Positions 20,733 through 35,061 of a stretch of 50,805 nucleotides of DNA are shown here, in pieces. The notes under the pieces are model-generated. The model did no database searches. It was not told the origin of the DNA and worked only from the letters and a program-made list of their open reading frames with translations. The translations under genes and the position numbers were made by a program. The DNA lies in IMG/VR virus record IMGVR_UViG_3300007775_000003, positions 1 to 50,805 of that record. The stretch is one strand, 5' to 3'. This stretch comes from a virus. Its lineage: Duplodnaviria > Caudoviricetes. Numbering within the stretch: the stretch's first letter is position 1; each line of letters opens with the position of its first letter.

Positions 20733-21115
20733 AACTGAGGGAGAACGCAGTCACCAAACTGGCGACCGTAACCGGCATTGACGCCACGGCAATCGCCGCG
20801 ACAACCCTGTTCGTCGTGCCGGCCGGCAAAACGCTAGTCGTTACACAGGTCGTGATCCGCTGCACAACCTATACGGTGGTCGTCAAAACCACTCAGGCGG
20901 TTGCTTCGTTTGGTGGCAACGCCAGCACCTATGACGACTATCTCAACAGCGTCACCTACACGATAGCTGCGGCGGATGTGGCGATTCACGATAGCGTGCT
21001 AGACGCCGCCGTGCCGGTCTATGCCGCGGGCGCTGCGTTTACGTTGGCAATCGAGACCGGCAGCGACGCGACGGCAGAGGTGTGGGCCGTCGATTTGTTG
21101 GGCTATCTGGTTTGA
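20723..21115 (+). CDS. Small beta-rich virion-type protein
   Basis: GAGGAG RBS; last gene of the late arm. Confidence 0.55.
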   Translation: MAVKLRENAVTKLATVTGIDATAIAATTLFVVPAGKTLVVTQVVIRCTTYTVVVKTTQAVASFGGNASTYDDYLNSVTYTIAAADVAIHDSVLDAAVPVYAAGAAFTLAIETGSDATAEVWAVDLLGYLV

Positions 21116-21120
21116 TCGCC

Positions 21121-21149
21121 AAACAAACCCCGCCGGGTGAGGGCGGGCG
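21121..21149. terminator. Probable terminator between the convergent arms
   Basis: CCCGCC-gggtga-GGGCGGG hairpin with an A-rich flank. Confidence 0.45.
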
Positions 21150-21168
21150 TCGTCCATTATCTGAGGCG

Positions 21169-21546
21169 TCACCACTCCCAGTCTCGCATAAACTGCGGTC
21201 TCTCCGGCTCGTGGTATTCGTCCGGTGCAACGATCTTGTACCAGGCGTTGAATGCCTCGACCGTCTGGCGCAGATTGGCCGGCGTGACTGGACGCTCCCA
21301 CACGTCCAGGATGAAGCGATCCATGTCCACTGAGTCGCCGCCGACGAAGACCGGCCAGGTGGACAGTGCCGAGTCTTCTTTCTCCGACAGCGCCGCGGTA
21401 AGCTCCTGCCACCGCTTGCCGCTCTCGCGGTCGGCGGCGGCGAGCAGGACGGTGCGACGCTTATCTGGCGTGAGCGTGTCCATGACATACTCGTATTCTG
21501 CGGCGCTGAGGCCACTGCGTAGTAATTTGGTTCCGTTGCCGGGCAT
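21169..21546 (-). CDS. Hypothetical protein
   Basis: AAGGAG RBS. Confidence 0.7.
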   Translation of the reverse strand: MPGNGTKLLRSGLSAAEYEYVMDTLTPDKRRTVLLAAADRESGKRWQELTAALSEKEDSALSTWPVFVGGDSVDMDRFILDVWERPVTPANLRQTVEAFNAWYKIVAPDEYHEPERPQFMRDWEW

Positions 21547-21555
21547 TTGATCTCC

Positions 21556-21764
21556 TTAATAATAACGAACCAAAATATGGAAAGGTATACCTTTTTGAAT
21601 TGGGCCTTCCCGTCCCCCATCTTCATCGCACGGTCGCACCCATGCGACACGATGATAAAGTTTTACAATCTTGTACAATGGATAACGTTTGTACACACTG
21701 GCGACAATATCACCTATAGCAAGACCGCGCTTGCCCGCCGATACGCCAAATCATAAACCTTCAT
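21556..21764 (-). pseudogene. Small KOW/SH3-like gene with an apparent 1-nt frameshift
   Basis: GGAGA + ATG (MKVYDLAYRR) stops early; the adjacent frame continues GKRGLAIGDIVASVYKRYPLYKIVKL... to TAA at 21556. Confidence 0.45.
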
Positions 21765-21768
21765 GATT

Positions 21769-21987
21769 TTATCTCCCGTCTCGCATCAACCACAAAATAA
21801 TTTTCTCCCGGTACAAACCCTTCTTGACCGGTGCGCAAATTTTGCGCATCTTGGCGACGGTTGTTCGATAGCTGGCGGCGATGCTGGCTAGTCTTATGTT
21901 GATCGTAGCCACTTCCCGACAGGTCGCTGGTTCCATGTCTAGAACCATGATTTCCCTGTCGGTTAGTCGCTTCAAAGTTTTCATCAT
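21769..21987 (-). CDS. Hypothetical protein
   Basis: ORF with AGGA RBS. Confidence 0.55.
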   Translation of the reverse strand: MMKTLKRLTDREIMVLDMEPATCREVATINIRLASIAASYRTTVAKMRKICAPVKKGLYREKIILWLMRDGR

Positions 21988-22068
21988 CCTATTTCTCTCG
22001 GCGACTATGGCGCGCGATGCGCCCTGGTTTGGTGTGTTGCCCGGCGGGGGATGCCGGGCTGGGTGGTT

Positions 22069-22422
22069 CTATTTCAGCAGATGACGCACACGCACCGCTG
22101 CCGGTGCGTAGAAAATTTCGTCGGGCAGGCCGGTGGCCGCTTGCGCAAGTTTTGCTAGTTGCTCGTCGTCCAAGTCCGGGCGCTGGCGTTTTGCTTCTGT
22201 GGCATCCGCCAGTGCCCAGCCGATCTCCCGATTGCGAAAATCTGCACCGTTGCCGCGAACGGTGGTGTCACCGTCATTATTGGCTGCGCTGGCTAGTGCC
22301 GCCAATAATGACTCGTGTGTTTCTACAACATCAAACACGTCTGGTTTCCCGTAGGTCACATTTTGATACGCATTTGCCAGGCGTGCGCTGAACTCACAGA
22401 CTTCCCATTTGTTGCTTTTCAT
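22069..22422 (-). CDS. Hypothetical protein
   Basis: AGGAGA RBS; first gene after the promoter at 22473-22501. Confidence 0.7.
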   Translation of the reverse strand: MKSNKWEVCEFSARLANAYQNVTYGKPDVFDVVETHESLLAALASAANNDGDTTVRGNGADFRNREIGWALADATEAKRQRPDLDDEQLAKLAQAATGLPDEIFYAPAAVRVRHLLK

Positions 22423-22472
22423 CGTCCATTCTCCTGTTTCCCGTGGGCCGCTCCGTGCTGCCCTATGTCACC

Positions 22473-22501
22473 AGTATACACCCGTTTACGCCCAATGTCA
22501 A
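22473..22501 (-). promoter_or_regulatory. Sigma70-type promoter TTGACA-17-TATACT
   Basis: Near-consensus hexamers in intergenic DNA. Confidence 0.85.
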
Positions 22502-22514
22502 GCCTTTTTGGTGT

Positions 22515-22565
22515 GAGTTTTGAAAACTCGTGAAACCCTTAACATTGTGTTCTATTCGTAGAACA
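22515..22565. promoter_or_regulatory. Operator-like palindromes GAGTTTT-G-AAAACTC and TGTTCT-N6-AGAACA
   Basis: Repeated with nearly identical spacing at 28408-28456. Confidence 0.7.
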
Positions 22566-22598
22566 AAAAAGCCCCGGCCAGCGCAAGCCAGCCGGGGC
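22565..22598 (-). terminator. Intrinsic terminator of the FtsK operon
   Basis: GCCCCGGC stem followed by T6 on the minus strand. Confidence 0.85.
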
Positions 22599-22644
22599 AG
22601 TCAACGTCGTCTGCGTCGCTGTTGGCGGCGTCGGGTGCGCTGTG

Positions 22645-23085
22645 TTATTTGCCTCTCTTTTTTGCCCAAGCCGCGTGACCCTCTTTGCATGTCGGTTCGA
22701 TCCACGGTGTGGGCAGCTTGCCGCCGTACTTTGCCGCCCATGCTTGGTTGCGCGGGTCAATCACGCCGCCCACGATTGCAAGTTTCTGCGTCCGCTCCAT
22801 TAAGTACTCCGCCCAATTCGCTTGAGACGTGCGCACCGCCACCCGCGCCTCTTGCGCCGCCGGTTGGGGCGGTGATCCAACCGTGTGGACGCCCTCGCTG
22901 TAACGTAGAATTTCAACGCCGCGTGGTTCCAGCGCCGTGTAAATGGTGTCACGCGCCGGGGTGCAGTACGCTTTTTGCACTACGAACGTATGCATGCCTG
23001 CCGGTTTTGCCTTCGCTTTGGCGGGACTGCGTCTTGCACCTTGCCGCGCTTTGCTTCTCCACTCTGTACGCCAGTTGCTTGCCAT
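22645..23085 (-). CDS. Basic hypothetical protein, last gene of the FtsK operon
   Basis: Start MASNW coupled to the upstream stop (TAATG); AAGGTGAG RBS. Confidence 0.7.
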   Translation of the reverse strand: MASNWRTEWRSKARQGARRSPAKAKAKPAGMHTFVVQKAYCTPARDTIYTALEPRGVEILRYSEGVHTVGSPPQPAAQEARVAVRTSQANWAEYLMERTQKLAIVGGVIDPRNQAWAAKYGGKLPTPWIEPTCKEGHAAWAKKRGK

Positions 23086-23645
23086 TAGCTCACCTTTGGT
23101 AGTCTGTACATGGTTGCCTGTTCGCCTTCCAGGGGTAGCGCATATTGCGGCGTATCGTCCGGCTCCACTTCGGCCAGCCGGTTGCGCTGCTCGGCGTCGT
23201 TGGCACGGTAAGCCAGTTCCGCCAGGCGCTTTTCGTACATGGCCCCGATTTTGCCGTAGCTGCTCAAAATGTCCTGCTGCGTCTTGGCGTCGGCGGCGTT
23301 CATTTGGTTGACGCCGCGCACAACCTCCGTCACCGCTCGCGCCTGCTGTGCCCCGCTCATGGCGTGGGCGTGGAGCAGATCCGCGTTGCTCTGGGCGATG
23401 CCGTGGCCGAACCGTACCAACAGCGCCATCGTTGCATGAATGCCGCCGTACAGCACGGCCAGCACAACCAGCACGCCGACGGCCACACCATACCAGCGCG
23501 CCCACTCCTTGCCACCTAGCCAGACGGAAACACCAAAGCCGCCGAAGATGAACACGACGGCCAGAATCGAGAACGCGACAAACGCCCACAGGCGGGCGCT
23601 CTGGTCGGTCGTGCCACTGCGGGTATAGGTTGGTTCGTTGTACAT
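23085..23645 (-). CDS. Two-TM membrane protein with helical C-terminus
   Basis: Hydrophobic LWAFVAFSILAVVFIFGGFGVSVWL and WYGVAVGVLVVLAVLYGG; AAGGAG RBS. Confidence 0.75.
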   Translation of the reverse strand: MYNEPTYTRSGTTDQSARLWAFVAFSILAVVFIFGGFGVSVWLGGKEWARWYGVAVGVLVVLAVLYGGIHATMALLVRFGHGIAQSNADLLHAHAMSGAQQARAVTEVVRGVNQMNAADAKTQQDILSSYGKIGAMYEKRLAELAYRANDAEQRNRLAEVEPDDTPQYALPLEGEQATMYRLPKVS

Positions 23646-23656
23646 GGCATGGCTCC

Positions 23657-25105
23657 TTATTGCGGCTTCAATGCGCTACTACTACTGTACATAAACGGCG
23701 CTACACGGGCCACAGAAGGGCGCTGAGGCGCTTTGTCGCTAGAAGTAGTAGCGGTAGTAGCGGTTGGCGCTTTCTCTTTATCTAGCACCGCTAACGCCGC
23801 CAACAAGCGCCGCCGGTTAGCGCCGCCGGTGTAAGCGTTGTCGTCACCAGTGAGAAGTCGAATCATATCCGCCTGCGTAGCGTCCGCGGCGTAAGCCTCA
23901 CGGATGGCGGCGGCGTCGATTTCGTCTTGTGTTACCGCTACCGGCGCTACCGGCGCAGTAGCGGCTGGTAGCGGCTTGGTAGTAGCGATGGTAGCGACCT
24001 CTGAACGGTGGCCGTAGTTGCGCCAGATGGCCCGACACAAGCCCATCGGCGTATCAATTAGCGGCGTTTGGTAACGAAACATGGTGCGGTTCAGTCGGTA
24101 AATAAATGAACCATACCCCGGCAACATTTCGGCCCCGCTCGCCTTGACCTGCACCGCCGTGTTGGCGTCGTCCTTGCTGGTCACGCTGCCCACTAGGCGC
24201 ATGAGTAGGTTCGACTTGAGTTGGTCGCCTAGCACATCGGCGGTCGGCTTCTGTGTGCAGATTATCAAATTCATGTTGTTCTCACGACACCGGCGGGCGA
24301 TGTCGGCCAAAAAGAATAGAATCTTGTTTCGTGTGTTCTTGTCTGGATGCTCGGTCAAGCTGGCGGCTTCCTCAATTGCCAGGATGTGCCGTGTGTCCCG
24401 CGAGACAATGCCCCGCTCGCGTTGCTCCATTTCGGCGTAAAATGTCGTGATGGCGTGTACAGCGTCTTCCAGGTCACGCGCCACGGTGCGGACGTGGGGC
24501 AAATTGTCTAGGAACTGTACGCCGTCGCTGTGTTTTGGGTCAACGACCGTGATCGCCAAGTCCGACGGCGAGTTGTGTAGCATAAGCGAAAACAACACCG
24601 ACAGTAGTTGGTTGGTCTTGCCGCTGCCGGTGGAGCCTGCAATCAACCCATGCGGCTGGTCGGGCTTCGCCATATTCCACAAGACCGGCGCGGTGCCATC
24701 GCCGGTGTAGCGCAGGCCACAAAATGCCGTCATCGGTGTACCAGGCCATTGCACCGACGACCAGGACAGCACGTCGCGCTGTGGCCGGCTGATCTCCATC
24801 GTGTGTTCGTAGCGGTCAATGCGCACGGTGGGCATGATCTCCATGCCGCTTTCGTCGGTGCTGGTTATGCCATTCATGCGCCGAAACTGGCGCACATAGG
24901 ACAACGTGTCATCCTGTTGCGCCAACAGCTTGCCGCCGTCAATACCCATCGGCACGCTCAGGTCATAGACGACCGTGGTGGGCGTCAGGTAGTGCGACGG
25001 CAGGCGGCGCGAGGTGCAAGGCACGGACACAGACAGGCCACGCGCCTTGAATAGTTGATTGATGATTGTCGCTTCGCTAACGATTCGTGCCAGGTCGTCT
25101 TGCAT
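23657..25105 (-). CDS. FtsK/SpoIIIE-family DNA translocase (TraB-like)
   Basis: HGLIAGSTGSGKT Walker A, VVDPK, LAIEEA Walker B, IICTQKP; small helical C-terminal domain; GAGGAGG RBS before MQDDL. Confidence 0.9.
   Translation of the reverse strand: MQDDLARIVSEATIINQLFKARGLSVSVPCTSRRLPSHYLTPTTVVYDLSVPMGIDGGKLLAQQDDTLSYVRQFRRMNGITSTDESGMEIMPTVRIDRYEHTMEISRPQRDVLSWSSVQWPGTPMTAFCGLRYTGDGTAPVLWNMAKPDQPHGLIAGSTGSGKTNQLLSVLFSLMLHNSPSDLAITVVDPKHSDGVQFLDNLPHVRTVARDLEDAVHAITTFYAEMEQRERGIVSRDTRHILAIEEAASLTEHPDKNTRNKILFFLADIARRCRENNMNLIICTQKPTADVLGDQLKSNLLMRLVGSVTSKDDANTAVQVKASGAEMLPGYGSFIYRLNRTMFRYQTPLIDTPMGLCRAIWRNYGHRSEVATIATTKPLPAATAPVAPVAVTQDEIDAAAIREAYAADATQADMIRLLTGDDNAYTGGANRRRLLAALAVLDKEKAPTATTATTSSDKAPQRPSVARVAPFMYSSSSALKPQ
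23674..23996. repeat. Cluster of 11 GTAGCG/CGCTAC hexamers
   Basis: CGCTAC at 23674, 23699, 23936, 23945; GTAGCG at 23748, 23757, 23877, 23958, 23968, 23982, 23991. Confidence 0.85.
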
Positions 25106-25107
25106 TG

Positions 25108-25194
25108 TCACCTCCTCATCACATACCACGCCAACAACGGGACGGTCAGCCATGCCAGCGCCACCAGGATTGTGCCGAACGTGTGGTCGGTCAT
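25108..25194 (-). CDS. 28-aa single-TM peptide
   Basis: MTDHTFGTILVALAWLTVPLLAWYVMRR; coupled to the HNH stop. Confidence 0.55.
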   Translation of the reverse strand: MTDHTFGTILVALAWLTVPLLAWYVMRR

Positions 25195-25451
25195 AGCGTC
25201 AATCCACCGTGCGCTTTGCCGTGGCACGCTGCGCACACGGTCGTCAGGTCGAACAGTTCGCGCAACCACGAGCCGCCCCGGTGTGTGTACGAATGGTGGT
25301 GGACTTCTAACCGCTGGGACGTTCCGCACATCCGGCAACGGTTGCCGTCGATGTGGCGGCGCACCCAGCGCAGGATGCGCCAACGCGGTGTGCGGAGATA
25401 CGCACGGTAGGCGATCTGTTCGGGTGAGAGCGGCGAGACGAAGTTGGTCAT
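25191..25451 (-). CDS. Small HNH-fold Zn-finger protein
   Basis: YLRTPRW, CRMC, LEVHH, LTTVCAACH. Confidence 0.8.
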   Translation of the reverse strand: MTNFVSPLSPEQIAYRAYLRTPRWRILRWVRRHIDGNRCRMCGTSQRLEVHHHSYTHRGGSWLRELFDLTTVCAACHGKAHGGLTL

Positions 25452-26200
25452 GTGTTCGCCTCTGCTTTGCCGTGTCCGTTTAATTGCGCCCGCGCTTCTT
25501 TCAGTCGATTGTTGACGGTACGCTCCGATTTGCCGATTTGACCGGAGATTTGCGAAATCGTGTAGCCGTTTTGCTTCATATTCCACACCTGCAAAACCTC
25601 AGACGGCAGCGCAATCACGGGCGTGTCGTCGGCAACTTCTTGCACTACTGGTTGCGTGATTTTTGCGCTTTTGCGCCCTGTTACGCCATTGCGTTTTTGC
25701 GTGATTTTTGCGTCCTCATTGCGTTCGTGCCACCGTTTCAAGCCAAGCGCCACGAATGCAAACATACTGATTAGTGGCAATCCGGCAAGTACCCAGTGCC
25801 CGCCGGTCTTGATTTCTAGCTGGTAAACGACGGTCATCACAATCGCCAACATGCCTACACTAGCAACCACGGCCACCCCCAGCGGCCACGCATAGCGTTT
25901 GCGGTTACCTAGCAAGCCGTCCCACATATGCAGCGCAACTTCGATGATTGCAAACAGCGCAAGTTCCACCGCCATTGCGAACGCAAATGCTTGCAATTGC
26001 GTGTAACCGAGGCTGTGCTGGCTAATGTTGTAGACGCTCACAGCGTTGGGCAATGGCGCAAGCAACGCCAAAGCACGGGCGGCAATGTCTGCGCCCTTGT
26101 CGCTGGTTTCGGTAGCGATGTACCACAGCATGTGGATCAGCGCGCCGTAGTGACGCTTTAGAAATTTGACGTAAGAAGGATATTCGTTGTTGTCAATCAT
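25448..26200 (-). CDS. Multi-TM membrane protein with C-terminal HTH (SpdB2-like architecture)
   Basis: About 4 hydrophobic segments, a linker, then GYTISQISGQIGKSERTVNNRL. Confidence 0.75.
   Translation of the reverse strand: MIDNNEYPSYVKFLKRHYGALIHMLWYIATETSDKGADIAARALALLAPLPNAVSVYNISQHSLGYTQLQAFAFAMAVELALFAIIEVALHMWDGLLGNRKRYAWPLGVAVVASVGMLAIVMTVVYQLEIKTGGHWVLAGLPLISMFAFVALGLKRWHERNEDAKITQKRNGVTGRKSAKITQPVVQEVADDTPVIALPSEVLQVWNMKQNGYTISQISGQIGKSERTVNNRLKEARAQLNGHGKAEANT
25652..25723. repeat. 16-bp direct repeat TTGCGTGATTTTTGCG (x2) within a TTGCG cluster
   Basis: Copies at 25652-25667 and 25697-25712; 7 TTGCG in about 72 bp. Confidence 0.8.
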
Positions 26201-26315
26201 GGCCTCACCTTGTCAGTTTGGCCGGAGGTGCTGCATAATGTTCGCAGCCGCCAGCCGGTCATGTCGGTTGTTGGTCAGCGCGTCGTTGGTGGTTTCGTCA
26301 CTGGCGACGCGCGCG

Positions 26316-26564
26316 CTACTCTACTACTTCCACATTCTCGGCGCGCCAAGCGCACCATTCCGCATGGATGGCAGGCGGCACGCTATAGCGCACCACACGA
26401 AGAACTCCCCAGCCATCACCGGGCCATTCTTCGCCGGTTTCCTCAATCAACCCAGCGGCCACCAATGTCGCCAGTGTCGCCGGGCGGTGGCCCTTGTCCT
26501 GGTTGACGGCCACCTGCTCAAACACTCGCAGTTGCGCCGGGGTCAGGTTGCAGAATCGTTTCAT
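26316..26564 (-). CDS. Small winged-helix-like hypothetical protein
   Basis: LTPAQLRVFEQV...TLATLVAAGLIEE; GGAGG RBS. Confidence 0.6.
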   Translation of the reverse strand: MKRFCNLTPAQLRVFEQVAVNQDKGHRPATLATLVAAGLIEETGEEWPGDGWGVLRVVRYSVPPAIHAEWCAWRAENVEVVE

Positions 26565-26779
26565 CCCTCCACCTCCTCATCCGCTGCGTCTTCCAGCGCT
26601 ATGCTATCAAAACCAACCGGCGCATAGCCTTCTGTATTCAACACTTTTTGCGCTTGGTCGCGCGCCGCCTCGGCAACTGCTCGCCTTACTAATTGCTTTA
26701 CTCCAAGCCGCTTGCCGTAGCGGCGTTTAAGTAGCCAAATGGTTCTCCGATCCAATAGGATTGTTGCGGCTTCGTTCAC
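26561..26779 (-). CDS. Hypothetical (possibly RHH-like) protein
   Basis: GTG start with AGGAGG RBS; coupled ORFs. Confidence 0.55.
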   Translation of the reverse strand: MNEAATILLDRRTIWLLKRRYGKRLGVKQLVRRAVAEAARDQAQKVLNTEGYAPVGFDSIALEDAADEEVEG

Positions 26780-27018
26780 CCGTCTACCTCCTGCGCTGCG
26801 TGCGCCAACAGGCACTCAAGCTCACTGGCCGTCATGCCACCACGTAGCAGCGCCACGAGCGCACCGTACACAATCGAGCGGCGTTCGTCGGGGTGTAGTT
26901 TGAGTAGCAAATCGGTCAGCGAATTTGCTTGCATGGCCGCTCGTACCCACATGGCACTACGTCCGATGGTCGGCACATCAATCGGGGCCGCTGGGCGGTC
27001 AAGCGTGATCGTAGTCAT
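26776..27018 (-). CDS. Hypothetical protein
   Basis: Coupled ORF in operon. Confidence 0.6.
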   Translation of the reverse strand: MTTITLDRPAAPIDVPTIGRSAMWVRAAMQANSLTDLLLKLHPDERRSIVYGALVALLRGGMTASELECLLAHAAQEVDG

Positions 27019-27247
27019 TTGTCATCATCTCCATTAGGATGCCTAGCATTTCCTCGATCCGTTCCAGGCGTTCGGCTGTCTGCGCACGGGAGCCGGTACG
27101 CTCGTCGTCTCGTAGCCGGTTCCAGTCAGCCAAAATTTGCCGGATCAGCTCGGACTGATTCCATGCGTGCTCACCCCAAATGCAGGCCGCTCGCTCGATA
27201 ACCTGCAAAGCGTGGGCGTCCAGTCGAATTGTTGTGCGCTTTTCCAT
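26999..27247 (-). CDS. Ribbon-helix-helix (CopG-like) regulator
   Basis: KRTTIRLD...NQSELIRQIL; first gene after the promoter. Confidence 0.7.
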   Translation of the reverse strand: MEKRTTIRLDAHALQVIERAACIWGEHAWNQSELIRQILADWNRLRDDERTGSRAQTAERLERIEEMLGILMEMMTNDYDHA

Positions 27248-27290
27248 GAGGCTCCATTAGTTCAGTTGGCATACTTTGTCATACAGGGCC

Positions 27291-27320
27291 AGTATAGCAC
27301 GCCCACACCCCCCCTGTCAA
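27291..27320 (-). promoter_or_regulatory. Promoter TTGACA-18-TATACT driving the FtsK operon
   Basis: Near-consensus hexamers with extended TG. Confidence 0.8.
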
Positions 27321-27348
27321 TTCCCAAAATTTCCGCACGCATGGCAAC

Positions 27349-27379
27349 AAAAAAAGCCCGACGTGGTGAGCGTCGGGCT
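27349..27379 (-). terminator. Intrinsic terminator
   Basis: AGCCCGACG stem followed by T7 on the minus strand. Confidence 0.85.
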
Positions 27380-27390
27380 GTGTGTGGGGT

Positions 27391-27645
27391 CTACTCCCAC
27401 GCCGGTTTTCCGGCTTTCTTGTGCGCCGCTGCGCCGGTCGGCGTAGGCGTCTCCAGGTATGCAACCCAACTGGCGCGGTCGATATACCAACGCGAGCCGC
27501 GCTTCTCGGCCTGGATCTTGCCGTCGCGACACAGCCGGCCAATCCAGGCCAGTTCCATGCCCCGCCCCAGCAGGCGAGACAGGGCGCGGGCCTCACCTGC
27601 GTCGAGTGTGGGCTGGGCGAGAAGTTCGGTTTTGGTTTTGCTCAT
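27391..27645 (-). CDS. Excisionase-like/MerR-type HTH DNA-binding protein
   Basis: WIGRLCRDGKIQAEKRGSRWYID; AGGAG RBS. Confidence 0.7.
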   Translation of the reverse strand: MSKTKTELLAQPTLDAGEARALSRLLGRGMELAWIGRLCRDGKIQAEKRGSRWYIDRASWVAYLETPTPTGAAAHKKAGKPAWE

Positions 27646-27693
27646 AGTGGCTCCTGTGTTAGTGGGGGCGGCTTTCACACCGCCCCTGGTTGG

Positions 27694-28032
27694 TTACTTT
27701 ATCAGCCCGACTTGCTTCGCCATCTTGCGGCTGTACTCGCTTAGATCTACACGCATACAAATTAGCCGCACTTCTTCCCGCCATCCCCTCTCAAATTCCG
27801 GGTAACACTCTTCCGGTAAATCCTGATTTTCACGAGCGGCCCGACGCCCCGCTTCAAAAATCTTTTCGTCAATTTCCTTGCGGGCTTCTTTTAGGCTAGA
27901 GCAACTTCCATTTCGCGTCGCCTGAATATACCAACGGCCAAAATAACCAGGGCTAATGCTATCATTACGACCGATTGAATATCCACAGTAGTAATACCCA
28001 CCTGCACACTTAGTCATTTTCGCTTTCATCAT
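27694..28032 (-). CDS. Hypothetical protein
   Basis: GGAGG RBS; AT-richer. Confidence 0.65.
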   Translation of the reverse strand: MMKAKMTKCAGGYYYCGYSIGRNDSISPGYFGRWYIQATRNGSCSSLKEARKEIDEKIFEAGRRAARENQDLPEECYPEFERGWREEVRLICMRVDLSEYSRKMAKQVGLIK

Positions 28033-28078
28033 CCTATCCTCCGTGCTAGTGGGGCTAGTCGCCTAGCCCCTGGGTTTG

Positions 28079-28273
28079 TCACGCAAACATAAACCGTAAC
28101 TCGTCTTCGTCAATCCCGTGTTCCGCCGCCCAGGTCGCATTCTCTGCGACAATTTGGGCGTTGCGGCGCTCAATTTCTTCCTGCTTGCGCTGCTCGGCTG
28201 CGAACCATGCTGCCTGAAACTTCGGTTGGAATTTGCCGCCGTTGGTCTTGCGTGTGGTATAATTAGTGTTCAT
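28079..28273 (-). CDS. Hypothetical protein
   Basis: AAGGA RBS; first gene after the promoter at 28366-28394. Confidence 0.65.
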   Translation of the reverse strand: MNTNYTTRKTNGGKFQPKFQAAWFAAEQRKQEEIERRNAQIVAENATWAAEHGIDEDELRFMFA

Positions 28274-28333
28274 TAGTTTGATGTCCTTAGAAGTGGGGCC
28301 GGAGGTGTTAGCTCACCTATCGGCCTTTTTTTT
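28270..28333 (+). ncRNA. Putative antisense sRNA covering the RBS/start of 28079-28273
   Basis: Extended -10 TGgTATAAT at 28255-28263 and a plus-strand hairpin + T8 terminator at 28297-28333. Confidence 0.5.
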
Positions 28334-28365
28334 GTTGGTTGGCTCGTTTGTTTCCCTATGTCCTA

Positions 28366-28394
28366 AGTATAGCAGAAATCGATACACTTGTCAA
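28366..28394 (-). promoter_or_regulatory. Promoter TTGACA-17-TATACT
   Basis: Near-consensus; shares downstream GACATAGGG with the 22473 promoter. Confidence 0.85.
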
Positions 28395-28406
28395 GTGTTT
28401 TTGTCA

Positions 28407-28456
28407 CGAGTTTTCAAAACTCGCAAAACTGTAAGCTTTTGTTCTAATTTAGAACA
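28407..28456. promoter_or_regulatory. Operator-like palindromes CGAGTTTT-C-AAAACTCG and TGTTCT-N5-AGAACA
   Basis: Matches 22515-22565. Confidence 0.7.
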
Positions 28457-28463
28457 TACAACC

Positions 28464-28497
28464 AAAAAAGCCGCCCTGGTTTTGCGCCAGGGCGGCT
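28464..28497 (-). terminator. Intrinsic terminator
   Basis: AGCCGCCCTGG stem followed by T run on the minus strand. Confidence 0.85.
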
Positions 28498-28583
28498 CGT
28501 GTTCGCCCGTGGCAGCACGGGCACACTCATCATCTTTGCAGCCTAATTTGATTCGATGCCGACGGCCACGGTTGCCCGTGTGT

Positions 28584-28742
28584 CTATGTCATCGCCCTGG
28601 TGGGCGTTGGCAACAGTATCCAACTCCGCGTCGGGATGTAGTCAAACGCGTTGGCCTCATATTTCTGTTCGTCCAAAATGGCCTGTTCGATTTCGGTCAA
28701 TTCGGCGCTGCCATTCAGCGCCATGAGAGCGTTGTTACTCAT
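28584..28742 (-). CDS. Hypothetical protein, possibly an internally deleted remnant
   Basis: AGGAGA RBS; MSNNALMAL...YIPTR then an atypical tail. Confidence 0.45.
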   Translation of the reverse strand: MSNNALMALNGSAELTEIEQAILDEQKYEANAFDYIPTRSWILLPTPTRAMT

Positions 28743-28771
28743 GTGTTTTGGATCTCCTGATTGAATGAAAA

Positions 28772-29023
28772 TTATACAAATCGCATCATGTCGTCTGCGG
28801 CTCGTTCCATGCGCACCACCTGAGTAAAGGTGAGATTGCCGAACGTCCAACAATAGTTCGTTTGGTGCCACTCACGAGCATCCATGTGAGTGGTCATCTG
28901 TCGCTGACCTTTTGTCGTTTTCAGGTCGATACCATGTACGGACTGAGCATGGTCGAAAAATTCGACCATCGTAAATTCTGGTTCATCCTGGCATGTCTGG
29001 CATGTACATACGTTGATGCTCAT
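28772..29023 (-). CDS. Small Zn-finger-like protein
   Basis: CQTC...HAQSVH; AGGAGA RBS. Confidence 0.65.
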   Translation of the reverse strand: MSINVCTCQTCQDEPEFTMVEFFDHAQSVHGIDLKTTKGQRQMTTHMDAREWHQTNYCWTFGNLTFTQVVRMERAADDMMRFV

Positions 29024-29066
29024 GTGGTTTGGATCTCCTGTCGAAAAAGTGAATCGAAATAACGGA

Positions 29067-29246
29067 CTACCTGCGCAGCACCTCGTCAGTTCGCAGCCAT
29101 CGCGGCATCACCGGACGGGGGAACGGCGGCGGGGCTGCTGCCCCCGGCGGCTCTAGCATCCCGGCATCATACATAAGCCAGGCTAGTTGCTGCCAGCGGT
29201 GGCGATGATACCACCACAGGCGGCAAAGTTTTTTGAGTAGGTTCAC
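29067..29246 (-). CDS. Hypothetical protein (59 aa, not in ORF track)
   Basis: GTG start overlapping the upstream stop; MNLLKKLCRLWWYHRHRW... Confidence 0.4.
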   Translation of the reverse strand: MNLLKKLCRLWWYHRHRWQQLAWLMYDAGMLEPPGAAAPPPFPRPVMPRWLRTDEVLRR

Positions 29247-29461
29247 TTTCTTACCGCCTTTTTCGCTACGTCCACAAGCGTGTCATGCTGCGCTACTCCC
29301 TGCACCAGCCCCGGCGGGATGATGCCCAGCGCCCGACACGTCGCAAGGTTGGCGGCGTCCAGATTGGCGATGGCGAGGTCTGCGAGTGCGTCCGCTGTGG
29401 CCGTCGTGACGACAAGCTGGCCGTCTATGGTGTGGCCGGTGGCGATTAGGTGCTTGGTCAT
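29243..29461 (-). CDS. Hypothetical protein
   Basis: Coupled ORF. Confidence 0.6.
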   Translation of the reverse strand: MTKHLIATGHTIDGQLVVTTATADALADLAIANLDAANLATCRALGIIPPGLVQGVAQHDTLVDVAKKAVRK

Positions 29462-29679
29462 GCCAACACCCCCTGCGCTACCAAATACTCACTAGCCTCG
29501 GCCCACGCCTCGGCGCGGTTTGCCTGGTGCCAACCGGCACGCTTCGCCTGTGTCCACATCGGGTTGAGCGCGGCTCCGGCCACGTATGCACGATAGCCCG
29601 CCAAGCGTTCGGCGGCGGCATCTGTGGGGGCGATGAAGCTAGGCGCTTTTGATTGTTTTTGCAATTGTACGACTGTCAT
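29458..29679 (-). CDS. Hypothetical protein
   Basis: AAGGAGA RBS before MTVVQLQ. Confidence 0.6.
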   Translation of the reverse strand: MTVVQLQKQSKAPSFIAPTDAAAERLAGYRAYVAGAALNPMWTQAKRAGWHQANRAEAWAEASEYLVAQGVLA

Positions 29680-29757
29680 GATAAAATCTCCTTGCTTAAC
29701 AAACCTCATTCTTCCGACGCCCGGCTCATTGGCCCTAACCAATGAGCCGGTTCGCGT

Positions 29758-30306
29758 TTATCGCTTGCGTTCTGCCAAGATGGCGGGCAATTCAGCCGTC
29801 AGGCGTTCACGCATGGCGGCAGTAATGGCGGTTAGCTCGCCCTTCAGCATACCTTCCATCTTCGAGGTAACTACCGCATTGCACGCCCATTTCCAGCGCG
29901 ACTGGCCTGAATAGCTCGTTGCATCCCCGCTGCTGTCAACCTTTTCCTCCAGGAATTTCGCCGCCTTCTCTCGCAGCAGGTCGCGCACGGTCGTTATTTC
30001 GCCGGTCGGCTCGCCCCATTCATCTGTTGGCTGAACCTTGCCGGCCAATGCTTCTGTTACGATGGCAGACAATTGGCGGTCAATTTCGTGCTTGATGCTG
30101 TTGCGTACATCCTTCTGGATTTCGTGGCGCAAATTTTGGAACAACTCACGCGCCGTTGCCTGTACAATGTCGGAACGGATGCCGATACAGATAGCCTCCA
30201 TGTCCAAACTGACATTTACGGCGCTGGGATACTTCGGCGCTTCGTCCGACACTTCGGTCGTACCTGGTGCAAAATCCTGTTCGTCAAAATCGGGTTCGTC
30301 GTACAT
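29758..30306 (-). CDS. Hypothetical helical protein
   Basis: AGGAGA RBS; TDEWGEP motif. Confidence 0.7.
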   Translation of the reverse strand: MYDEPDFDEQDFAPGTTEVSDEAPKYPSAVNVSLDMEAICIGIRSDIVQATARELFQNLRHEIQKDVRNSIKHEIDRQLSAIVTEALAGKVQPTDEWGEPTGEITTVRDLLREKAAKFLEEKVDSSGDATSYSGQSRWKWACNAVVTSKMEGMLKGELTAITAAMRERLTAELPAILAERKR

Positions 30307-30351
30307 TGTGATTCTCCTATTGAATGAATGTTGGTTGAATGCCGGTTCGCG

Positions 30352-30561
30352 TTACGCCGCCAGTTTCGCCCGCAACCGCGCTTGGTCGGCGCGCGCCTGC
30401 ATGTGCTCCGATTGCCCAGCCACGTAGCCGTCGCGCTCGGCGTCGGTGGCGCAGCGGCTGTATGGCTGATTGGTCGCGTACAGGCGGCGGCCATATTTGC
30501 GCGCCTCAACCGTCGTCAGCGCGCCCAGGGCGTCTGCGAATTGACCTAGTGTTGTGATCAT
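30352..30561 (-). CDS. Hypothetical protein
   Basis: ORF in the leftward operon. Confidence 0.55.
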   Translation of the reverse strand: MITTLGQFADALGALTTVEARKYGRRLYATNQPYSRCATDAERDGYVAGQSEHMQARADQARLRAKLAA

Positions 30562-30564
30562 GTC

Positions 30565-30711
30565 CTATTTCCCCTTCTTGGCTTCTTCGACCGCTTTCTC
30601 GGCGGCCTTGACCAAATTTCGGTGATCTTCAACGGTCGCGGGTTTCTCCGCGGCCTTGTCCAGTTTGCCCTGGACATCCTTGTCGTCGGTCTTGGTATCG
30701 AAGTAAATTAT
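30565..30711 (-). CDS. First gene of the leftward operon, apparent ATA start
   Basis: AAAGGA RBS 9 nt before ATA; open frame IYFDTKTDDKDVQGKLDKAAEK... with phage-like codon use. Confidence 0.5.
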   Translation of the reverse strand: MIYFDTKTDDKDVQGKLDKAAEKPATVEDHRNLVKAAEKAVEEAKKGK

Positions 30712-30792
30712 TGTCTATTGTCCTTTCGCTTGGCCCCGTTTTGCGTGACTACACCGGGCGGGGCTTCGTTTTGTTTGCGGTCGGGGTGATTT

Positions 30793-30881
30793 ATTTCCCT
30801 ACGGTCAATCTTAGCATTGGTTCCGCCGGATGTCAAGCGTTTTTAGTACCAATTTTCCCTACGGTCAATAATTTTAAGGTT
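30793..30881 (-). promoter_or_regulatory. PL-like promoter TTGACA-17-TAAGAT (30836-30808) with two operators (A/T)TTTCCCTACGGTCAAT
   Basis: Operators at 30793-30809 and 30853-30869, 60 bp apart. Confidence 0.85.
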
Positions 30882-31005
30882 AAAAAAATTCCACCCGCAT
30901 TTTTGCAGGTGGAAAAAGAAGGATTTACGGATTCCTGACGATTATTATTGTATACTCCGCTCTGCAATCAATCGTTAGGAATCAAAAATGAAAAATAACG
31001 CAGAC

Positions 31006-31605
31006 TCATTCCGCCAACTCACGCCAGAGCAGCGGGCGGCTATACTGAGTAGCCTCCGCGACATTGCCGCCGACATCGTTACTGAGGACATGCAACGTCG
31101 TGCCGTCACCAGCGGGTACTTCGCCGGGCGGCATCAAACGACGTTCGATCTGCCGGGCCACGTTCGCACCCGCAACCTCGCCAATTAGTTTGATTAGCGC
31201 ATTATATTCTTGATTTTCCGCCTCGAATTTCGAGCGGATTGATTGCGCCTGCGCCAAGACGACTGCACGATATTTTGGCGGTAGATCATCGACCAGGCGC
31301 GCCACCTCGTCTGCCTCTTGCGAAAAATAGACCGGTTCATCCTCTTTCCTCCTGTATGGGTTCTCCGCGCCCTGGCTAGGCACAAGCCAATCGATGGATA
31401 CGTCAAGCTCGCGCGCCAGGGCGATGAGCGTCTCCATGGATGGGTTTTTTTGATCGTGTTCGATTTTCGACAGCATGGCCGGCGAAATTTTCGCACGGCT
31501 CGCCAACTCTTTGCTTTGCCAGCCCTTGATCCTATCCCTGGCGAAACGCACCCGCTGACCCGTAGTCGTCAAAAAATCCTCGATATTCGACATGACCGCA
31601 ATCAT
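31006..31605 (-). CDS. XRE-family HTH repressor (cI-like)
   Basis: ELASRAKISPAMLSKIEHDQKNPS...LDVSIDWL; divergent from a cro-like gene; AGGAG RBS. Confidence 0.85.
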   Translation of the reverse strand: MIAVMSNIEDFLTTTGQRVRFARDRIKGWQSKELASRAKISPAMLSKIEHDQKNPSMETLIALARELDVSIDWLVPSQGAENPYRRKEDEPVYFSQEADEVARLVDDLPPKYRAVVLAQAQSIRSKFEAENQEYNALIKLIGEVAGANVARQIERRLMPPGEVPAGDGTTLHVLSNDVGGNVAEATQYSRPLLWRELAE

Positions 31606-31642
31606 AATCCACTCCTGATAAAAGTTGACCAACCTTAAAATT

Positions 31643-31719
31643 ATCGACCGCGGGGAAATTTGCTCTTAAAAATGCTTGACATTGAGGCTTGCATGGTGTA
31701 AGATTTCCCGTAGGTCAAT
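31643..31719 (+). promoter_or_regulatory. PR-like promoter TTGACA-17-TAAGAT (31676-31704) with two operators
   Basis: ATCGACCGCGGGGAAAT at 31643-31659 and ATTTCCCGTAGGTCAAT at 31703-31719. Confidence 0.85.
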
Positions 31720-31742
31720 TATTTTCACACGGGGGGGTCATC

Positions 31743-31955
31743 ATGGCAATCGGGCATCGAATCAGAACGCTTCGCGAAGAGCGCAACTTGAAACAATACG
31801 AACTGGCCGAACGGATTCGAGCCAGCGGACAAAAAATCTCGATCAGTTTCTTGTCGAAGATCGAGACCGGACAAAAAAATCCGTCGATCCACGTCGCCAC
31901 GGCTATCGCCGCCGCGTTGGCTGTGACTCTGGACGACATTGTATCGGTCAATTAG
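31743..31955 (+). CDS. Cro-like XRE HTH regulator
   Basis: IRTLREERNLKQYELA...SFLSKIETGQKNPS; 70 aa. Confidence 0.85.
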   Translation: MAIGHRIRTLREERNLKQYELAERIRASGQKISISFLSKIETGQKNPSIHVATAIAAALAVTLDDIVSVN

Positions 31956-32271
31956 CCACCAGGACGCCCACGCGCGTAGCCTGCCAGGCGGAGCAAGGCC
32001 GCCGGTGGTGTTTGCAGTTGCTTCCTCCTTGTGTTTTGTGTGGGTGTGCCGTTCCGTAGCCACGCGGACAAGGTTGTGCAAGCCAACCTGCGGCAACTTG
32101 CTCCGGTGTTCGTTTTCATTGATCTTGCTGTCAGCTTATCTCGGACGGCACCGGGGCAAAAATTGACCGCCAGGGGGTGAAGCCTGACGGCCGGGGTGAT
32201 GAATAGAGGTTGTGTGGGTGGGATATAGGCGGCTCCTCAAAGTTTCTGCATTGTTAACCATTGCCGCCCAC

Positions 32272-32300
32272 AAAATAGCACTACATCGCCGCCCCGTCAA
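32272..32300 (-). promoter_or_regulatory. Possible leftward promoter TTGACG-17-TATTTT (PRE-like position)
   Basis: Hexamer match with extended TG; points through cro towards cI. Confidence 0.45.
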
Positions 32301-32340
32301 GCAATTTCGATAAATTTTGACCAACGTAAGGTAAACCGTA

Positions 32341-32631
32341 ATGTCAGAGGGTCAAGCATTATTTTATTTATTTGTAGCCTCAGTGCCTTACGCCGGTCTG
32401 GTCGCCCTTTTTCGCTGGCAGCTTCCCGGCCACAAAATCACCCCGTTCTTTGTCGTTGGCGGCAACCTGCTGATTATCGCCTTCGCATTTCCAATCATCG
32501 GTCAAGATAGCGCAATTTTCCTGTTCAAGCTGAACGCGGTCGCGGCTGTGGGCGTCTGCGTTGAATACTACGTTTCGGCCTGGTGCATGGAACAACGTAA
32601 GCGCCGACGACAGCAGGAGAATAAGTTTTGA
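32341..32631 (+). CDS. Three-TM membrane protein
   Basis: Three hydrophobic segments and a basic C-terminus. Confidence 0.65.
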   Translation: MSEGQALFYLFVASVPYAGLVALFRWQLPGHKITPFFVVGGNLLIIAFAFPIIGQDSAIFLFKLNAVAAVGVCVEYYVSAWCMEQRKRRRQQENKF

Positions 32632-32939: not shown

Positions 32940-33689
32940 GTGATGGCGACATGGCAAGTGATGAGTTACGGGGGCGGAATCCAGTCCGTCGCCATGATTG
33001 CGCTCGTGCTACAGGGCAGACTGCCCCGGCCCGACCGCATCCTGATTGCAGACACCGGGCGCGAGAAGAAAAGCACCTGGGACTACCTGAACGAAGTGGT
33101 GCAGTCTGCGCTGGCGACGGTGGGGCTGCACGTCGAGATTGCGCCACACTCGCTGGCGACGGTTGACTTGCACGCTGGCAATGGTGATCTGCTCATCCCG
33201 GTTTACACAGCTACCGGCAAGCTGCCCACGTTCTGCTCGAACGAATGGAAGGAGCGCGTCATCCAACGCTATCTGCGGGCGGCTGGCTGCGAGGCGTGCG
33301 AATGCTGGATTGGCTACAGCCTCGACGAACAGGAGCGCGCCAAGCGCGCGGACGATCTACAGTGGTATACGCGGCGTTATCCCCTGCTCGAACTCGGGTT
33401 AACTCGCGCTGATTGCCATGTGATTATCAAAGAGGCCGGCTGGCCTCTCCCATACAAATCCGCCTGCTGGATGTGCCCAAATATGGATGATGAGGGTTGG
33501 CGGGAAATGAAGTTACATTATCCCGGCGACTTCCAAAAAGCAGTCGCGCTAGAATCTGAAATTCGAGAATGGGACGACGACGTATGGCTACATGAATCCC
33601 GCCAACCGATTGGGGATGTGATTTTCCAGCCGGGGCGCAAGCGTTCACGGGCTGGAAAATACCAATGCAGTTTCGGATGTTTTGTGTAG
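32940..33689 (+). CDS. PAPS reductase-family (PP-loop) protein
   Basis: SYGGGIQS, ADTGRE, YPLLELG, KSACWMCP, C-terminal CxxxC. Confidence 0.8.
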   Translation: MMATWQVMSYGGGIQSVAMIALVLQGRLPRPDRILIADTGREKKSTWDYLNEVVQSALATVGLHVEIAPHSLATVDLHAGNGDLLIPVYTATGKLPTFCSNEWKERVIQRYLRAAGCEACECWIGYSLDEQERAKRADDLQWYTRRYPLLELGLTRADCHVIIKEAGWPLPYKSACWMCPNMDDEGWREMKLHYPGDFQKAVALESEIREWDDDVWLHESRQPIGDVIFQPGRKRSRAGKYQCSFGCFV

Positions 33690-34844: not shown

Positions 34845-35061
34845 CCACCTACCTAATCCCCGCCCGCACCCGCCGCATCCCCGGCGACTCGCACGCCTGC
34901 CACATCGAGCAGGATGGCGCTGCGCTGTGTGGGGCGGTGCTAGGCGAGCCGTACCGGGAAAGTCAGTTCAGTTCAGTTATGCTTACAACGTCTGCAAGGC
35001 CTGTGAGCGTGCGCAGGCGTCGCCACAAATGGCGCTATTGACGGAGGCAACCACATGCTAG
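34841..35061 (+). pseudogene. Zn-finger gene frameshifted by (CAGTT)x3
   Basis: Removing one repeat unit gives a 71-aa ORF ending CKACERAQASPQMALLTEATTC, paralogous to 35055-35336. Confidence 0.7.

Follow-up and report, generated by a model that had tools for sequence, protein, structure and literature searches.

In cellular FtsK and SpoIIIE, loading on DNA is directed by a small C-terminal DNA-reading domain; the gamma domain of FtsK reads KOPS, and SRS takes the corresponding place for SpoIIIE. TcpA, the FtsK-like ATPase of pCW3 of Clostridium perfringens, works with a relaxase-based system. In the TraB/clt/Spd systems of the Streptomyces plasmids pSVH1 and pIJ101, a single motor of the FtsK superfamily is accompanied by small membrane proteins; passages in PMC4447253 describe the C terminus of pSVH1 TraB as reading direct 8-bp repeats in clt, and recognition of clt by the TraB C terminus is also described in PMC3429521. 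Similar speculation on cell-to-cell spread, for SpdB2 homologues on actinophages, is found in print in PMC4447253. In PMC8597652, FtsK/SpoIIIE is listed as an accessory gene of a Chloroflexi-associated viral operational taxonomic unit, and a role in segregating phage genomes into spores is cited for FtsK/SpoIIIE of Bacillus phages. The present analysis concerns an operon on the minus strand (22571-27320) of a tailed phage known from a complete virus record of 50,805 bp with direct terminal repeats (IMGVR_UViG_3300007775_000003; the whole of this stretch is hereafter called the window). The operon may encode a two-part, membrane-anchored FtsK-type translocase of double-stranded DNA (dsDNA) that is loaded on the phage genome, a reading whose chances we put at about even on the basis of sequence comparisons and structural models.

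The operon resembles the TraB/clt/Spd systems in having a single FtsK-superfamily motor, a C-terminal helical domain next to clustered repeats on the element's own DNA, small membrane proteins and a putative regulator gene at the head of the unit. However, the phage motor has no membrane part of its own, unlike TraB, and the operon contains neither a GntR-type repressor nor an SpdB/DUF2637 homologue; the repeats of the phage family are hexamer- or pentamer-based (6-8-mers) and inverted, whereas those of clt are direct and 8 bp long; and the operon resides in a tailed phage that is fully equipped for packaging and whose host is probably not an actinomycete. With cellular FtsK/SpoIIIE the motor shares the alpha+beta fold, Walker A and the CTQxP motif and, in principle, the proposed use of a small C-terminal DNA-reading domain to direct loading, but it lacks the N-terminal domain with four transmembrane (TM) segments, in place of which there is a separate gene for a 2-TM protein. 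It also differs from the FtsK/KOPS system in that no FtsK_gamma domain is matched and the phage motif is clustered in one 330-nt stretch instead of being dispersed and polar. The closest cellular sequence kin are pairs of a short FtsK-like gene and a 2-TM gene in Chloroflexota, which have the same gene order and partner architecture; these short forms carry neither the C-terminal domain nor the arrays of the phage motor, and some of the pairs have a LexA-like gene upstream, which the phage operon does not. Bacillus phages Gamma, Wbeta and Cherry likewise bear an FtsK-family ATPase near the lysogeny region, but identity to it is only 25.9% over 52% of the query, and the neighbours of the Gamma gene are a replication-initiation protein and an integrase, whereas the window phage has membrane partners at that place. 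In the full texts searched, no cis array was reported for the FtsK genes of Bacillus phages or of Chloroflexus-associated contigs, and no description was found either of a phage-encoded FtsK system in which the anchor is a protein of its own and the motor has matching repeats, or of the Chloroflexota pair.

The FtsK-type motor and its presumed membrane partners

The ATPase gene (23657-25105, minus strand) most likely starts at 25105, giving a protein of 482 amino acids (aa) that matches the database copy P0001. It was assigned to PF01580 (E = 8.5e-18, 65 bits) and phrog_1358 (E = 8.6e-43). In an AlphaFold2 (AF2) model with a predicted local distance difference test score (pLDDT) of 83, residues 1-365 form the alpha+beta motor and are followed by a disordered linker (367-390), a three-helix domain (393-445, pLDDT 80-89) and a disordered tail (446-482). 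Foldseek ranked FtsK first for this model (6t8o, E = 2.6e-21, TM-score 0.71 by target over approximately 395 columns; also 2ius), then TcpA, then EccC/EssC and then HerA, and a family profile built from 18 ATPase members retrieved the FtsK motor 2iuu first from the Protein Data Bank (PDB; E = 5e-31), with EccC and TcpA next. Walker A (GSGKT) is invariant across the family, the CTQxP motif is present, and Walker B has the form hhhh[D/E]E with an invariant second glutamate. By sequence profile and predicted fold, the ATPase is a true FtsK alpha-beta motor of the DNA-translocase type and not an EssC or HerA protein. The first-pass annotation, which had proposed a TraB/Spd-like dsDNA transfer operon, had named in advance a grouping of the ATPase with EssC/EccC or HerA as the result that would speak against it; no such grouping was seen, FtsK being best by both profile and Foldseek.

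Its assignment of the ATPase to the TraB family itself did not survive. The NCBIfam model plasmid_TraB (NF041214) gave 25 bits against a cut-off of 800, over residues 152-236 only, and pIJ101 Tra has only the P-loop core in common with the ATPase family (hhalign 97.3% over 183 core columns). TcpA is the second-best structural family (6o1w, E = 6.4e-21; E = 8e-16 with the sequence profile), but its superposition is worse than that of FtsK (root-mean-square deviation 8.5 Å, TM-score 0.45 by query), and among the operon proteins no relaxase or other Tcp-type protein was matched in Pfam and NCBIfam.

It is highly improbable that the ATPase drives a type VII secretion-like export of a small phage protein by way of the membrane partners. 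The NCBIfam EssC model scored 60 bits, near the 63 bits of FtsK, four proteins of approximately 80 aa are encoded upstream, and the last ATPase domains of EssC-like proteins form the next branch in the tree described below. Nevertheless, only one ATPase domain is present, joined to an alpha domain of the FtsK type; both profile and fold place EccC/EssC behind FtsK and TcpA (Foldseek E = 1e-21 for FtsK, far above EccC/EssC at E = 1e-12 and weaker); no WXG100 or other type VII secretion family was matched in Pfam and NCBIfam; and a near-identical variant carries other DNA in place of two of the small genes. EssC/EccC was rejected as the identity of the ATPase.

As the first-pass annotation had noted, the ATPase has no TM anchor of its own: no hydropathy peak and no TM helix in the AF2 model was found. 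The 2-TM protein (186 aa; 23085-23645, minus strand), which has a helical cytoplasmic domain and a Y(R/K)(L/M)P tail, is encoded directly downstream, and a 2-TM open reading frame (ORF) directly follows the ATPase gene in the window and in the related loci L083, L084/85, L087, L002 and L227. A 28-aa single-TM peptide (25108-25194, minus strand) abuts the ATPase start, and in L083 and L084 small TM ORFs are found at the corresponding place. The order small TM ORF(s)-ATPase-2-TM protein is kept in L083, L084/85 and L087, and also in L086 up to the contig end inside the ATPase gene, while the order ATPase-2-TM protein is kept in L002 and in L227 (39-kb contig G306). Homologues of the 146-aa protein encoded next in the window are found at the same position in L002 and L084. 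Taken together, a core consisting of the small TM peptide, the ATPase, the 2-TM protein and often the approximately 146-aa protein is found again in six further loci of metagenomic or viral origin. Joint conservation of the gene set, the lack of which the first-pass annotation had named as contrary evidence, thus holds in part: for the core of TM peptide, ATPase and 2-TM protein, but not for the multi-TM/HTH, HNH and 80- and 84-aa genes, which are not constant.

Complex prediction with ATPase residues 1-366 and residues 72-186 of the 2-TM protein gave a score of 0.59, against 0.00 for the best control, which was classed as weak support; at least 92% of contacts are shared between runs, and the pLDDT of the partner is at least 59. 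Of 80 solved complexes, 58 reached the mark used in such predictions, as did 2 of 110 mismatches, and scores of 0.60 or under were obtained for only 7 of the 80 solved complexes and for both mismatches that passed. From synteny and this prediction, the 2-TM protein is the presumed membrane anchor of the ATPase.

The block also appears to move as a unit. L087 (4-195, 1394-1552 and 1423-2916) is a mosaic in which the 82-aa and 28-aa proteins are near-identical to those of the window (95 and 93%, respectively), whereas the multi-TM gene, the ATPase (37% by BLASTP) and the 2-TM gene represent another subtype, suggesting that the membrane-ATPase block is exchanged as a cassette.

Repeat arrays at the 3′ end of the ATPase gene

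A search for exact repeats of at least 10 nt revealed no array in the operon; the arrays are visible by k-mer counts and by codon reading. Two conserved tracts of the ATPase are encoded by reverse complements, 'ATT/TTT' being written GCT ACT AC[T/C] and the C-terminal 'SSS' AGT AGT AGC. Nine of the 39 genome copies of GCTACY are concentrated within 350 nt (0.27 expected), the densest place in the genome, and 11 of the 39 copies of CGCTAC are located within 23674-23996, in both orientations. The longer word GCTACTAC occurs six times in the genome, compared with 0.40 expected from shuffles, and four of the six copies belong to the array at the 3′ end of the ATPase gene. These repeats fall in the DNA encoding the two disordered segments that flank the three-helix domain. 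Cluster A (23936-23996), in the DNA coding for the disordered linker, contains six copies of CGCTAC, of which four run in gene sense and two are inverted. Cluster B (23674-23764), at the end of the ORF, consists of a tandem pair of GCTACTAC in gene sense and, approximately 40-70 nt beyond the pair, two copies of CGCTAC that are inverted, one of them being GCTACTAC; this cluster is a candidate loading site or RNA stem. The repeats are written with codons that are rare in the genome: ACT for 6 of 13 threonine codons (9% in the genome), GCT for 9 of 27 (10%), AGT for 3 of 7 (13%) and GTA for 4 of 7 (12%).

Two types of array were distinguished among the relatives. In type 1, L083 and L087 share the C-terminal domain type of the window, with motors 42 and 32% identical to that of the window, respectively, and contain five and six array copies (0.39 and 0.71 expected). 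The window and L083 are identical over the last 18 nt preceding the final two codons; the exact 18-mer of the type-1 tail was absent from the viral contigs searched. In type 2 (L084/85, L002 and L227), the C-terminal domain is different, and the array is composed of TACTTCACTTCACTTCAC, of the (ACTTC)3 type, followed 53-58 nt later by an inverted copy. GCTACY occurs once each in L084 and L085 and not in L002, with no cluster in these type-2 loci. The inverted arm of L002 starts at the stop codon and is non-coding. The pentamer run alone is not diagnostic, since 47 of the 49 viral contigs holding (ACTTC)3AC contain no family ATPase in the stored stretch.

Domain and array type change together, and do so irrespective of the similarity of the motors. 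L083 and L084 have motors that are 69% identical but differ in both domain and array type, whereas L084, L002 and L227, with motors only 30-36% identical, have the array and the domain type (41-47% identity) in common. Domain and array are accordingly read, at the level of sequence, as an exchangeable unit. If the two are exchanged together, the simplest function would be that the domain reads the array, and a pump whose domain reads this array would be loaded on the phage genome, as are TraB through its C terminus and clt and FtsK through gamma and KOPS. The array would then be a candidate clt-like cis site near the motor C terminus, an element absent from the first-pass annotation. In the mechanism that we propose, a soluble alpha-beta motor would be held at the membrane by the separate 2-TM partner and the tiny upstream TM peptide, its added three-helix domain would read the inverted GCTACY array in the 3′ end of its own gene, and the pump so loaded on the phage genome itself would move or hold phage dsDNA at the host membrane or division septum. 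Among 8-10-mers counted genome-wide, there was no strongly strand-skewed or abundant KOPS-like word.

The inverted symmetry may also be explained by RNA. It is possible that a host-like septal or SOS-type pump works here without sequence-specific loading and that the arrays are mRNA or cruciform structures tuning the expression of the ATPase and 2-TM genes. In predicted RNA folds, pairing between the arms of the array is seen in each of the six loci (z from -1.2 to -4.2), so that an mRNA hairpin could account for the symmetry; in four of the six loci, only 0 or 1-2 of 200 shuffles fold as well. In addition, the two array types differ in sequence while both keep complementarity, the right arm of L002 lies just before the ribosome-binding site of the 2-TM gene, and the host short forms work without any C-terminal domain. 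On the other hand, the hexamer is exact in all copies across motors that are 32-42% identical, with no compensating drift of the arms; there are tandem copies in surplus of what a stem requires (cluster A of the window has six, and L083 has the palindromic AGTAGCGCTACC); the fold of the window itself is no better than that of shuffles (z = -1.18; 26 of 200 fold as well); and the addition of a well-folded C-terminal domain (pLDDT 84-89) with a basic helix calls for a role. We regard such a purely structural function as unlikely, although an mRNA stem is a serious competitor of the DNA-address reading.

Besides the pairing of the arms, several further observations count against a sequence-addressed pump. 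The array and the domain are encoded by the same DNA stretch and are co-inherited for that reason, so that their joint exchange does not constitute independent evidence. Between the window and L083, the same codon is used for 26 of 53 identical residues in the C-terminal part and for 49 of 143 in the motor, a modest excess, and in some other pairs the two shares are approximately equal. The C-terminal domain matched no solved helix-turn-helix (HTH) in Pfam or among the PDB sequences, where only chance-level rows were obtained, and the ATPase gave no match to FtsK-gamma (PF09397) at E up to 0.1. Walker B reads I-E-E at residues ~244-246 in the window and its closest relatives, compared with D-E elsewhere in the family. 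Finally, no clear homology between the phage and host 2-TM partners emerged (hhalign 21% probability over 32 TM-helix columns), and the host 2-TM profile was matched only by the partner of L002, at 12 bits. With these points taken into account, an addressed, membrane-anchored translocase retains the roughly even chances given above.

Relatives, lineage and probable host of the phage

The ATPase family is small. A search of 5.8 billion proteins returned 23 best rows at 35-100% identity, including the window's own copy and one 314-aa fragment, and the next tier beyond the phage family is made up of short FtsK-like proteins of approximately 340-440 aa. A first scan of viral contigs with the single ATPase protein gave no match. 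In a collection of species genomes, 80 loci were kept, of which the best 60 derive from 59 metagenome-assembled genomes (MAGs) of Chloroflexota and one unclassified bacterium. A long canonical FtsK was also present in all five of five Chloroflexota genomes with the short form, indicating that the short form is a paralogue. Among the short non-phage loci, a TM ORF of 80-260 aa is located directly downstream in 87 of 116 evaluable cases, with exactly two TM segments in 78 of the 87, and a LexA-like ORF lies within 600 nt upstream of the short FtsK-like gene in 21 of 90 evaluable loci. These closest cellular relatives are chromosomal genes with housekeeping neighbours and are not on conjugative elements.

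The family profile yields a graded series of scores: 507-773 bits for the phage family, 172-212 for the Chloroflexota short forms, approximately 100-125 for canonical FtsK (best or summed stretches), 108-119 for the last domains of EssC-like proteins, 61 for phage Gamma and 29 for pIJ101 Tra, the lowest of the sequences scored. A tree was constructed using MAFFT and FastTree, with pIJ101 Tra as an arbitrary root. In this tree, the 11 closest rows of the family fall into a single clade (support 0.98), which shares a branch with the Chloroflexota short forms, L002 and the long branch of phage Gamma; the latter thus lies inside the clade joining the phage family and the short forms, where no support value was read.

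Because the motor lineage is carried in Chloroflexota chromosomes as a short FtsK-like gene with a 2-TM gene, the host is probably a bacterium of this phylum. Relatives of the terminase large subunit (TerL) of the phage, at 37-47% identity, were found in 3 of 301 sampled Chloroflexota genomes; matches at E up to 1e-10 were found in 24 of the 301, two of them unpublished, and nothing rests on these. Three points argue against this host assignment: the only one of the 23 rows with an organism name is a Chloracidobacterium MAG (43% identical), the retrieval of candidates from the species genomes relied on two peptide patterns, and no member of the ATPase family was found in the three Chloroflexota genomes with the best TerL relatives. 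Many Chloroflexota are filamentous.

ParA-type ATPase genes were observed near the FtsK-like gene in the viral relatives L002 (1793-2479) and L227 (11504-12337) and in the Chloroflexota locus L014 (12680-13549), the FtsK-like gene of which branches nearest the phage family; of the three, only the L002 protein was confirmed by Pfam. The positions of these genes hint at a link with partition functions.

Operon organization, genomic surroundings and possible roles

The leftward unit was recovered as the first-pass annotation had described it, with its own near-consensus promoter, a strong terminator and all of the genes listed. The sigma-70-like promoter (27291-27320, minus strand; TTGACA-18-TATACT) matches the consensus at 11 of 12 positions and has a TG before the -10 (extended -10). 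Just upstream, the terminator of the preceding leftward unit (27355-27379, minus strand) insulates the operon, which ends at a T-tailed intrinsic terminator with a 12-bp stem (22571-22598, minus strand). The FtsK/SpoIIIE ATPase, the HNH protein and the C-terminal HTH are supported by hidden Markov models (HMMs), and the TM peptide, the 2-TM protein and the basic protein were confirmed as ORFs. The first gene (82 aa; 26999-27247, minus strand) is kept in the soil variants and may encode an autoregulator of the ribbon-helix-helix (RHH) type; the RHH label given to it previously, however, rests on the appearance of the N terminus, as it found no HMM support, with no match in Pfam, PHROGs and NCBIfam and only chance-level rows among the PDB sequences. 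The genes for 80 aa (26776-27018) and 84 aa (26561-26815), both on the minus strand and without an assigned function, form a variable part: one near-identical variant contig has 188 different letters where the window has 26558-26989. They are followed by the gene for another 82-aa protein (26316-26564, minus strand), which is the one 95% identical, over 58 aa, to its counterpart in L087. In other soil variant contigs, 26249-26341 is replaced by 111 letters. The last gene of the unit (22645-23085, minus strand), whose start overlaps the stop of the 2-TM gene, encodes the basic 146-aa protein (K+R 26, D+E 12), for which the ESM Atlas yielded no usable match; one low-depth soil variant contig has a 309-nt deletion in this gene (window 22692-23002). 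Of the 10 copies of the octamer CGCCAACA in the genome, counted on either strand, 7 lie within the operon (22620-26810), where they are dispersed and not clustered. The LexA-box motif GAAC-N4-GTTC has no site in the window.

The multi-TM/HTH protein (250 aa; 25448-26200, minus strand) shows three hydropathy peaks and is predicted to consist of a helical membrane domain, a disordered linker and a C-terminal HTH of the sigma-70-r4/LuxR-like type, which matches Sigma70_r4_2 (E = 4.6e-5) and is the only part of the model matched by Foldseek. Its family is large and occurs in phages and Chloroflexota (579 cluster representatives at E up to 1e-10). In the window, L083, L084-86 and L087 the gene lies ahead of that for the ATPase, but it is missing in L002 and L227, whereas the complete 59.7-kb phage G307, which has direct terminal repeats, carries a 61%-identical protein without a family ATPase; to judge from this distribution, it is a frequent but not obligatory ATPase neighbour. 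G307 also holds an (ACTTC)3AC run (L218 4330-4346). The homology with SpdB2 suggested earlier for this protein was not found. DUF2637 is not among the 8 families matched by the window's protein, nor among the 25 listed of the 54 families matched by 23 members, nor among the 25 listed of the 89 matched by 86 members; the 86-member profile gave 3.3% with pIJ101 SpdB in hhalign, and in the ESM Atlas the DUF2637 and SpdB_N clusters appeared only at 0.80, the chance level. An SpdB2/DUF2637 identity is accordingly unsupported by these comparisons. The HNH endonuclease (25191-25451, minus strand; Pfam 21.2 bits with a cut-off of 21.4, PHROG HNH E = 2.2e-9) had been counted as part of the system, but 25194-25446 gives way to 152 different letters in a near-identical soil variant, the slot holds a DUF3102+GIY-YIG gene in L083, and nothing is found there in L084 and L087. 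By these sequence comparisons it is an optional insertion outside the machine.

The operon belongs to a leftward transcribed region (21,169-31,632) between two rightward arms. The structural arm (1 to ~21,100) encodes a capsid protein (PF25209), tail-fibre-like proteins and a weakly matched portal (phrog_104, E = 1.2e-4), and the replication arm, from ~32,000, encodes ribonucleotide reductase, a primase-helicase, TerL (phrog_2, E = 1.1e-42) and an Sf6-like terminase small subunit, TerS (PF20901, 28.4 bits); that the phage has packaging genes of its own was thus borne out, with the portal weakly matched. Other cargo (9180-10256, 32940-33689, 34254-35989 and 42103-42696) includes a GT4/GT1-like glycosyltransferase among the structural genes, a protein similar to phosphoadenosine phosphosulfate reductase, two DNA methyltransferases and a DnaJ-domain protein. 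Near-identical DNA is present in soil metagenomes from three studies, with no RNA run among the listed sequencing runs that contain the stretch, and no GenBank phage with the operon was matched by megablast.

A gene for a CI-type HTH repressor (31006-31632, leftward arm) lies at the end of the leftward block. It is flanked by a 52-nt inverted repeat that is 85% complementary (30794-30881/31631-31719), and three copies of TTTCCCTACGGTCAAT-like 16-mers are found at the two promoter regions; both elements are probably immunity operators, judging from position and sequence. Within 21000-32500, 20 promoter-like sites were counted, compared with 6.3 +/- 3.0 in shuffles. Two sister leftward promoters, at 22501 and 28394 (both TTGACA-17-TATACT), each have the near-perfect palindrome GAGTTTT(G/C)AAAACTC (22512-22533 and 28404-28425) just upstream of the -35, and this palindrome, which is absent at the promoter of the FtsK operon, looks like an operator common to the two. 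Six-frame searches of the whole genome detected no tyrosine integrase, serine recombinase (resolvase) or ParA-type ATPase. From this gene content, the phage may be temperate and non-integrating, with a CI-type repressor and without integrase, resolvase or ParA, or it may be virulent.

The position of the operon in the leftward arm, between the tail genes and the CI-like repressor, is usual for defence cargo, which raises the question of a superinfection-exclusion cassette in which a membrane ATPase blocks or expels the incoming DNA of competing phages. The operon has its own promoter and terminator and is exchanged as a cassette among related phages, and PADLOC models with FtsK-like domains match the ATPase (SspH, E = 2e-24; mad8, E = 2.4e-13). 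These matches are limited to the common P-loop domain (positions 1534-1631 of a 1766-position model), however, no Ssp or mads partner was found among the operon proteins, and self-handling is a better fit than exclusion for a recognition array placed on the DNA of the phage itself. A defence function is improbable.

For a translocase loaded on the phage genome, two purposes were considered. The pump may see to it that a non-integrating phage genome stays on the correct side as septa close, or it may push genome copies into neighbouring cells. The former, a role in septal keeping or rescue, is favoured because the phage has a CI-type repressor without integrase or ParA and because the cellular kin are chromosomal and often located beside lexA, but it remains a tentative possibility; the latter is rather doubtful.

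The fullest form of spread, already put forward in the first-pass annotation, is a conjugation-type system like TraB/clt/Spd that pumps phage dsDNA through the septa of a filamentous host and thereby spreads independently of virions. This would agree with an FtsK-type motor with membrane partners under its own promoter, with clustered repeats at the 3′ end of the motor gene beside a C-terminal helical domain, with nearest cellular kin in Chloroflexota and with a complete genome devoid of integrase, resolvase and ParA. It is nonetheless unlikely, since the ATPase falls far below the TraB cut-off and pIJ101 Tra is the most distant sequence scored, the multi-TM protein shows no SpdB/DUF2637 homology and need not accompany the ATPase, searches of the operon in Pfam, PHROGs and NCBIfam gave no protein that binds or cuts the cell wall, and the cellular kin are chromosomal, among housekeeping genes and often by lexA, not on conjugative elements. 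Likewise unlikely is the more specific version in which a phage of filamentous Chloroflexota pumps its genome through septa by a TraB-clt-like two-part FtsK pump, with domain/array pairs serving as specificity cassettes. If this were true, the phage would spread along the filament without making virions, and the exchangeable domain/array pairs would keep related phages from mobilising each other.

Whereas FtsK/SpoIIIE genes borne by phages are usually listed as accessory genes without a mechanism, the present analysis adds a defined machine, comprising a motor, a separate presumed anchor and small membrane parts, together with a likely cellular source lineage and a concrete candidate DNA address that changes together with the C-terminal domain of the motor. 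Which DNA a phage FtsK acts on, and where, thereby becomes directly testable. On the strength of these comparisons, we propose that the system is a variant among the FtsK/TraB-type, sequence-addressed DNA translocases. If the address is real, the one-protein, sequence-addressed logic of dsDNA transfer of Streptomyces plasmids would exist in the phages of another phylum as well, and it would suggest a way in which non-integrating phages may persist or spread in multicellular filaments.

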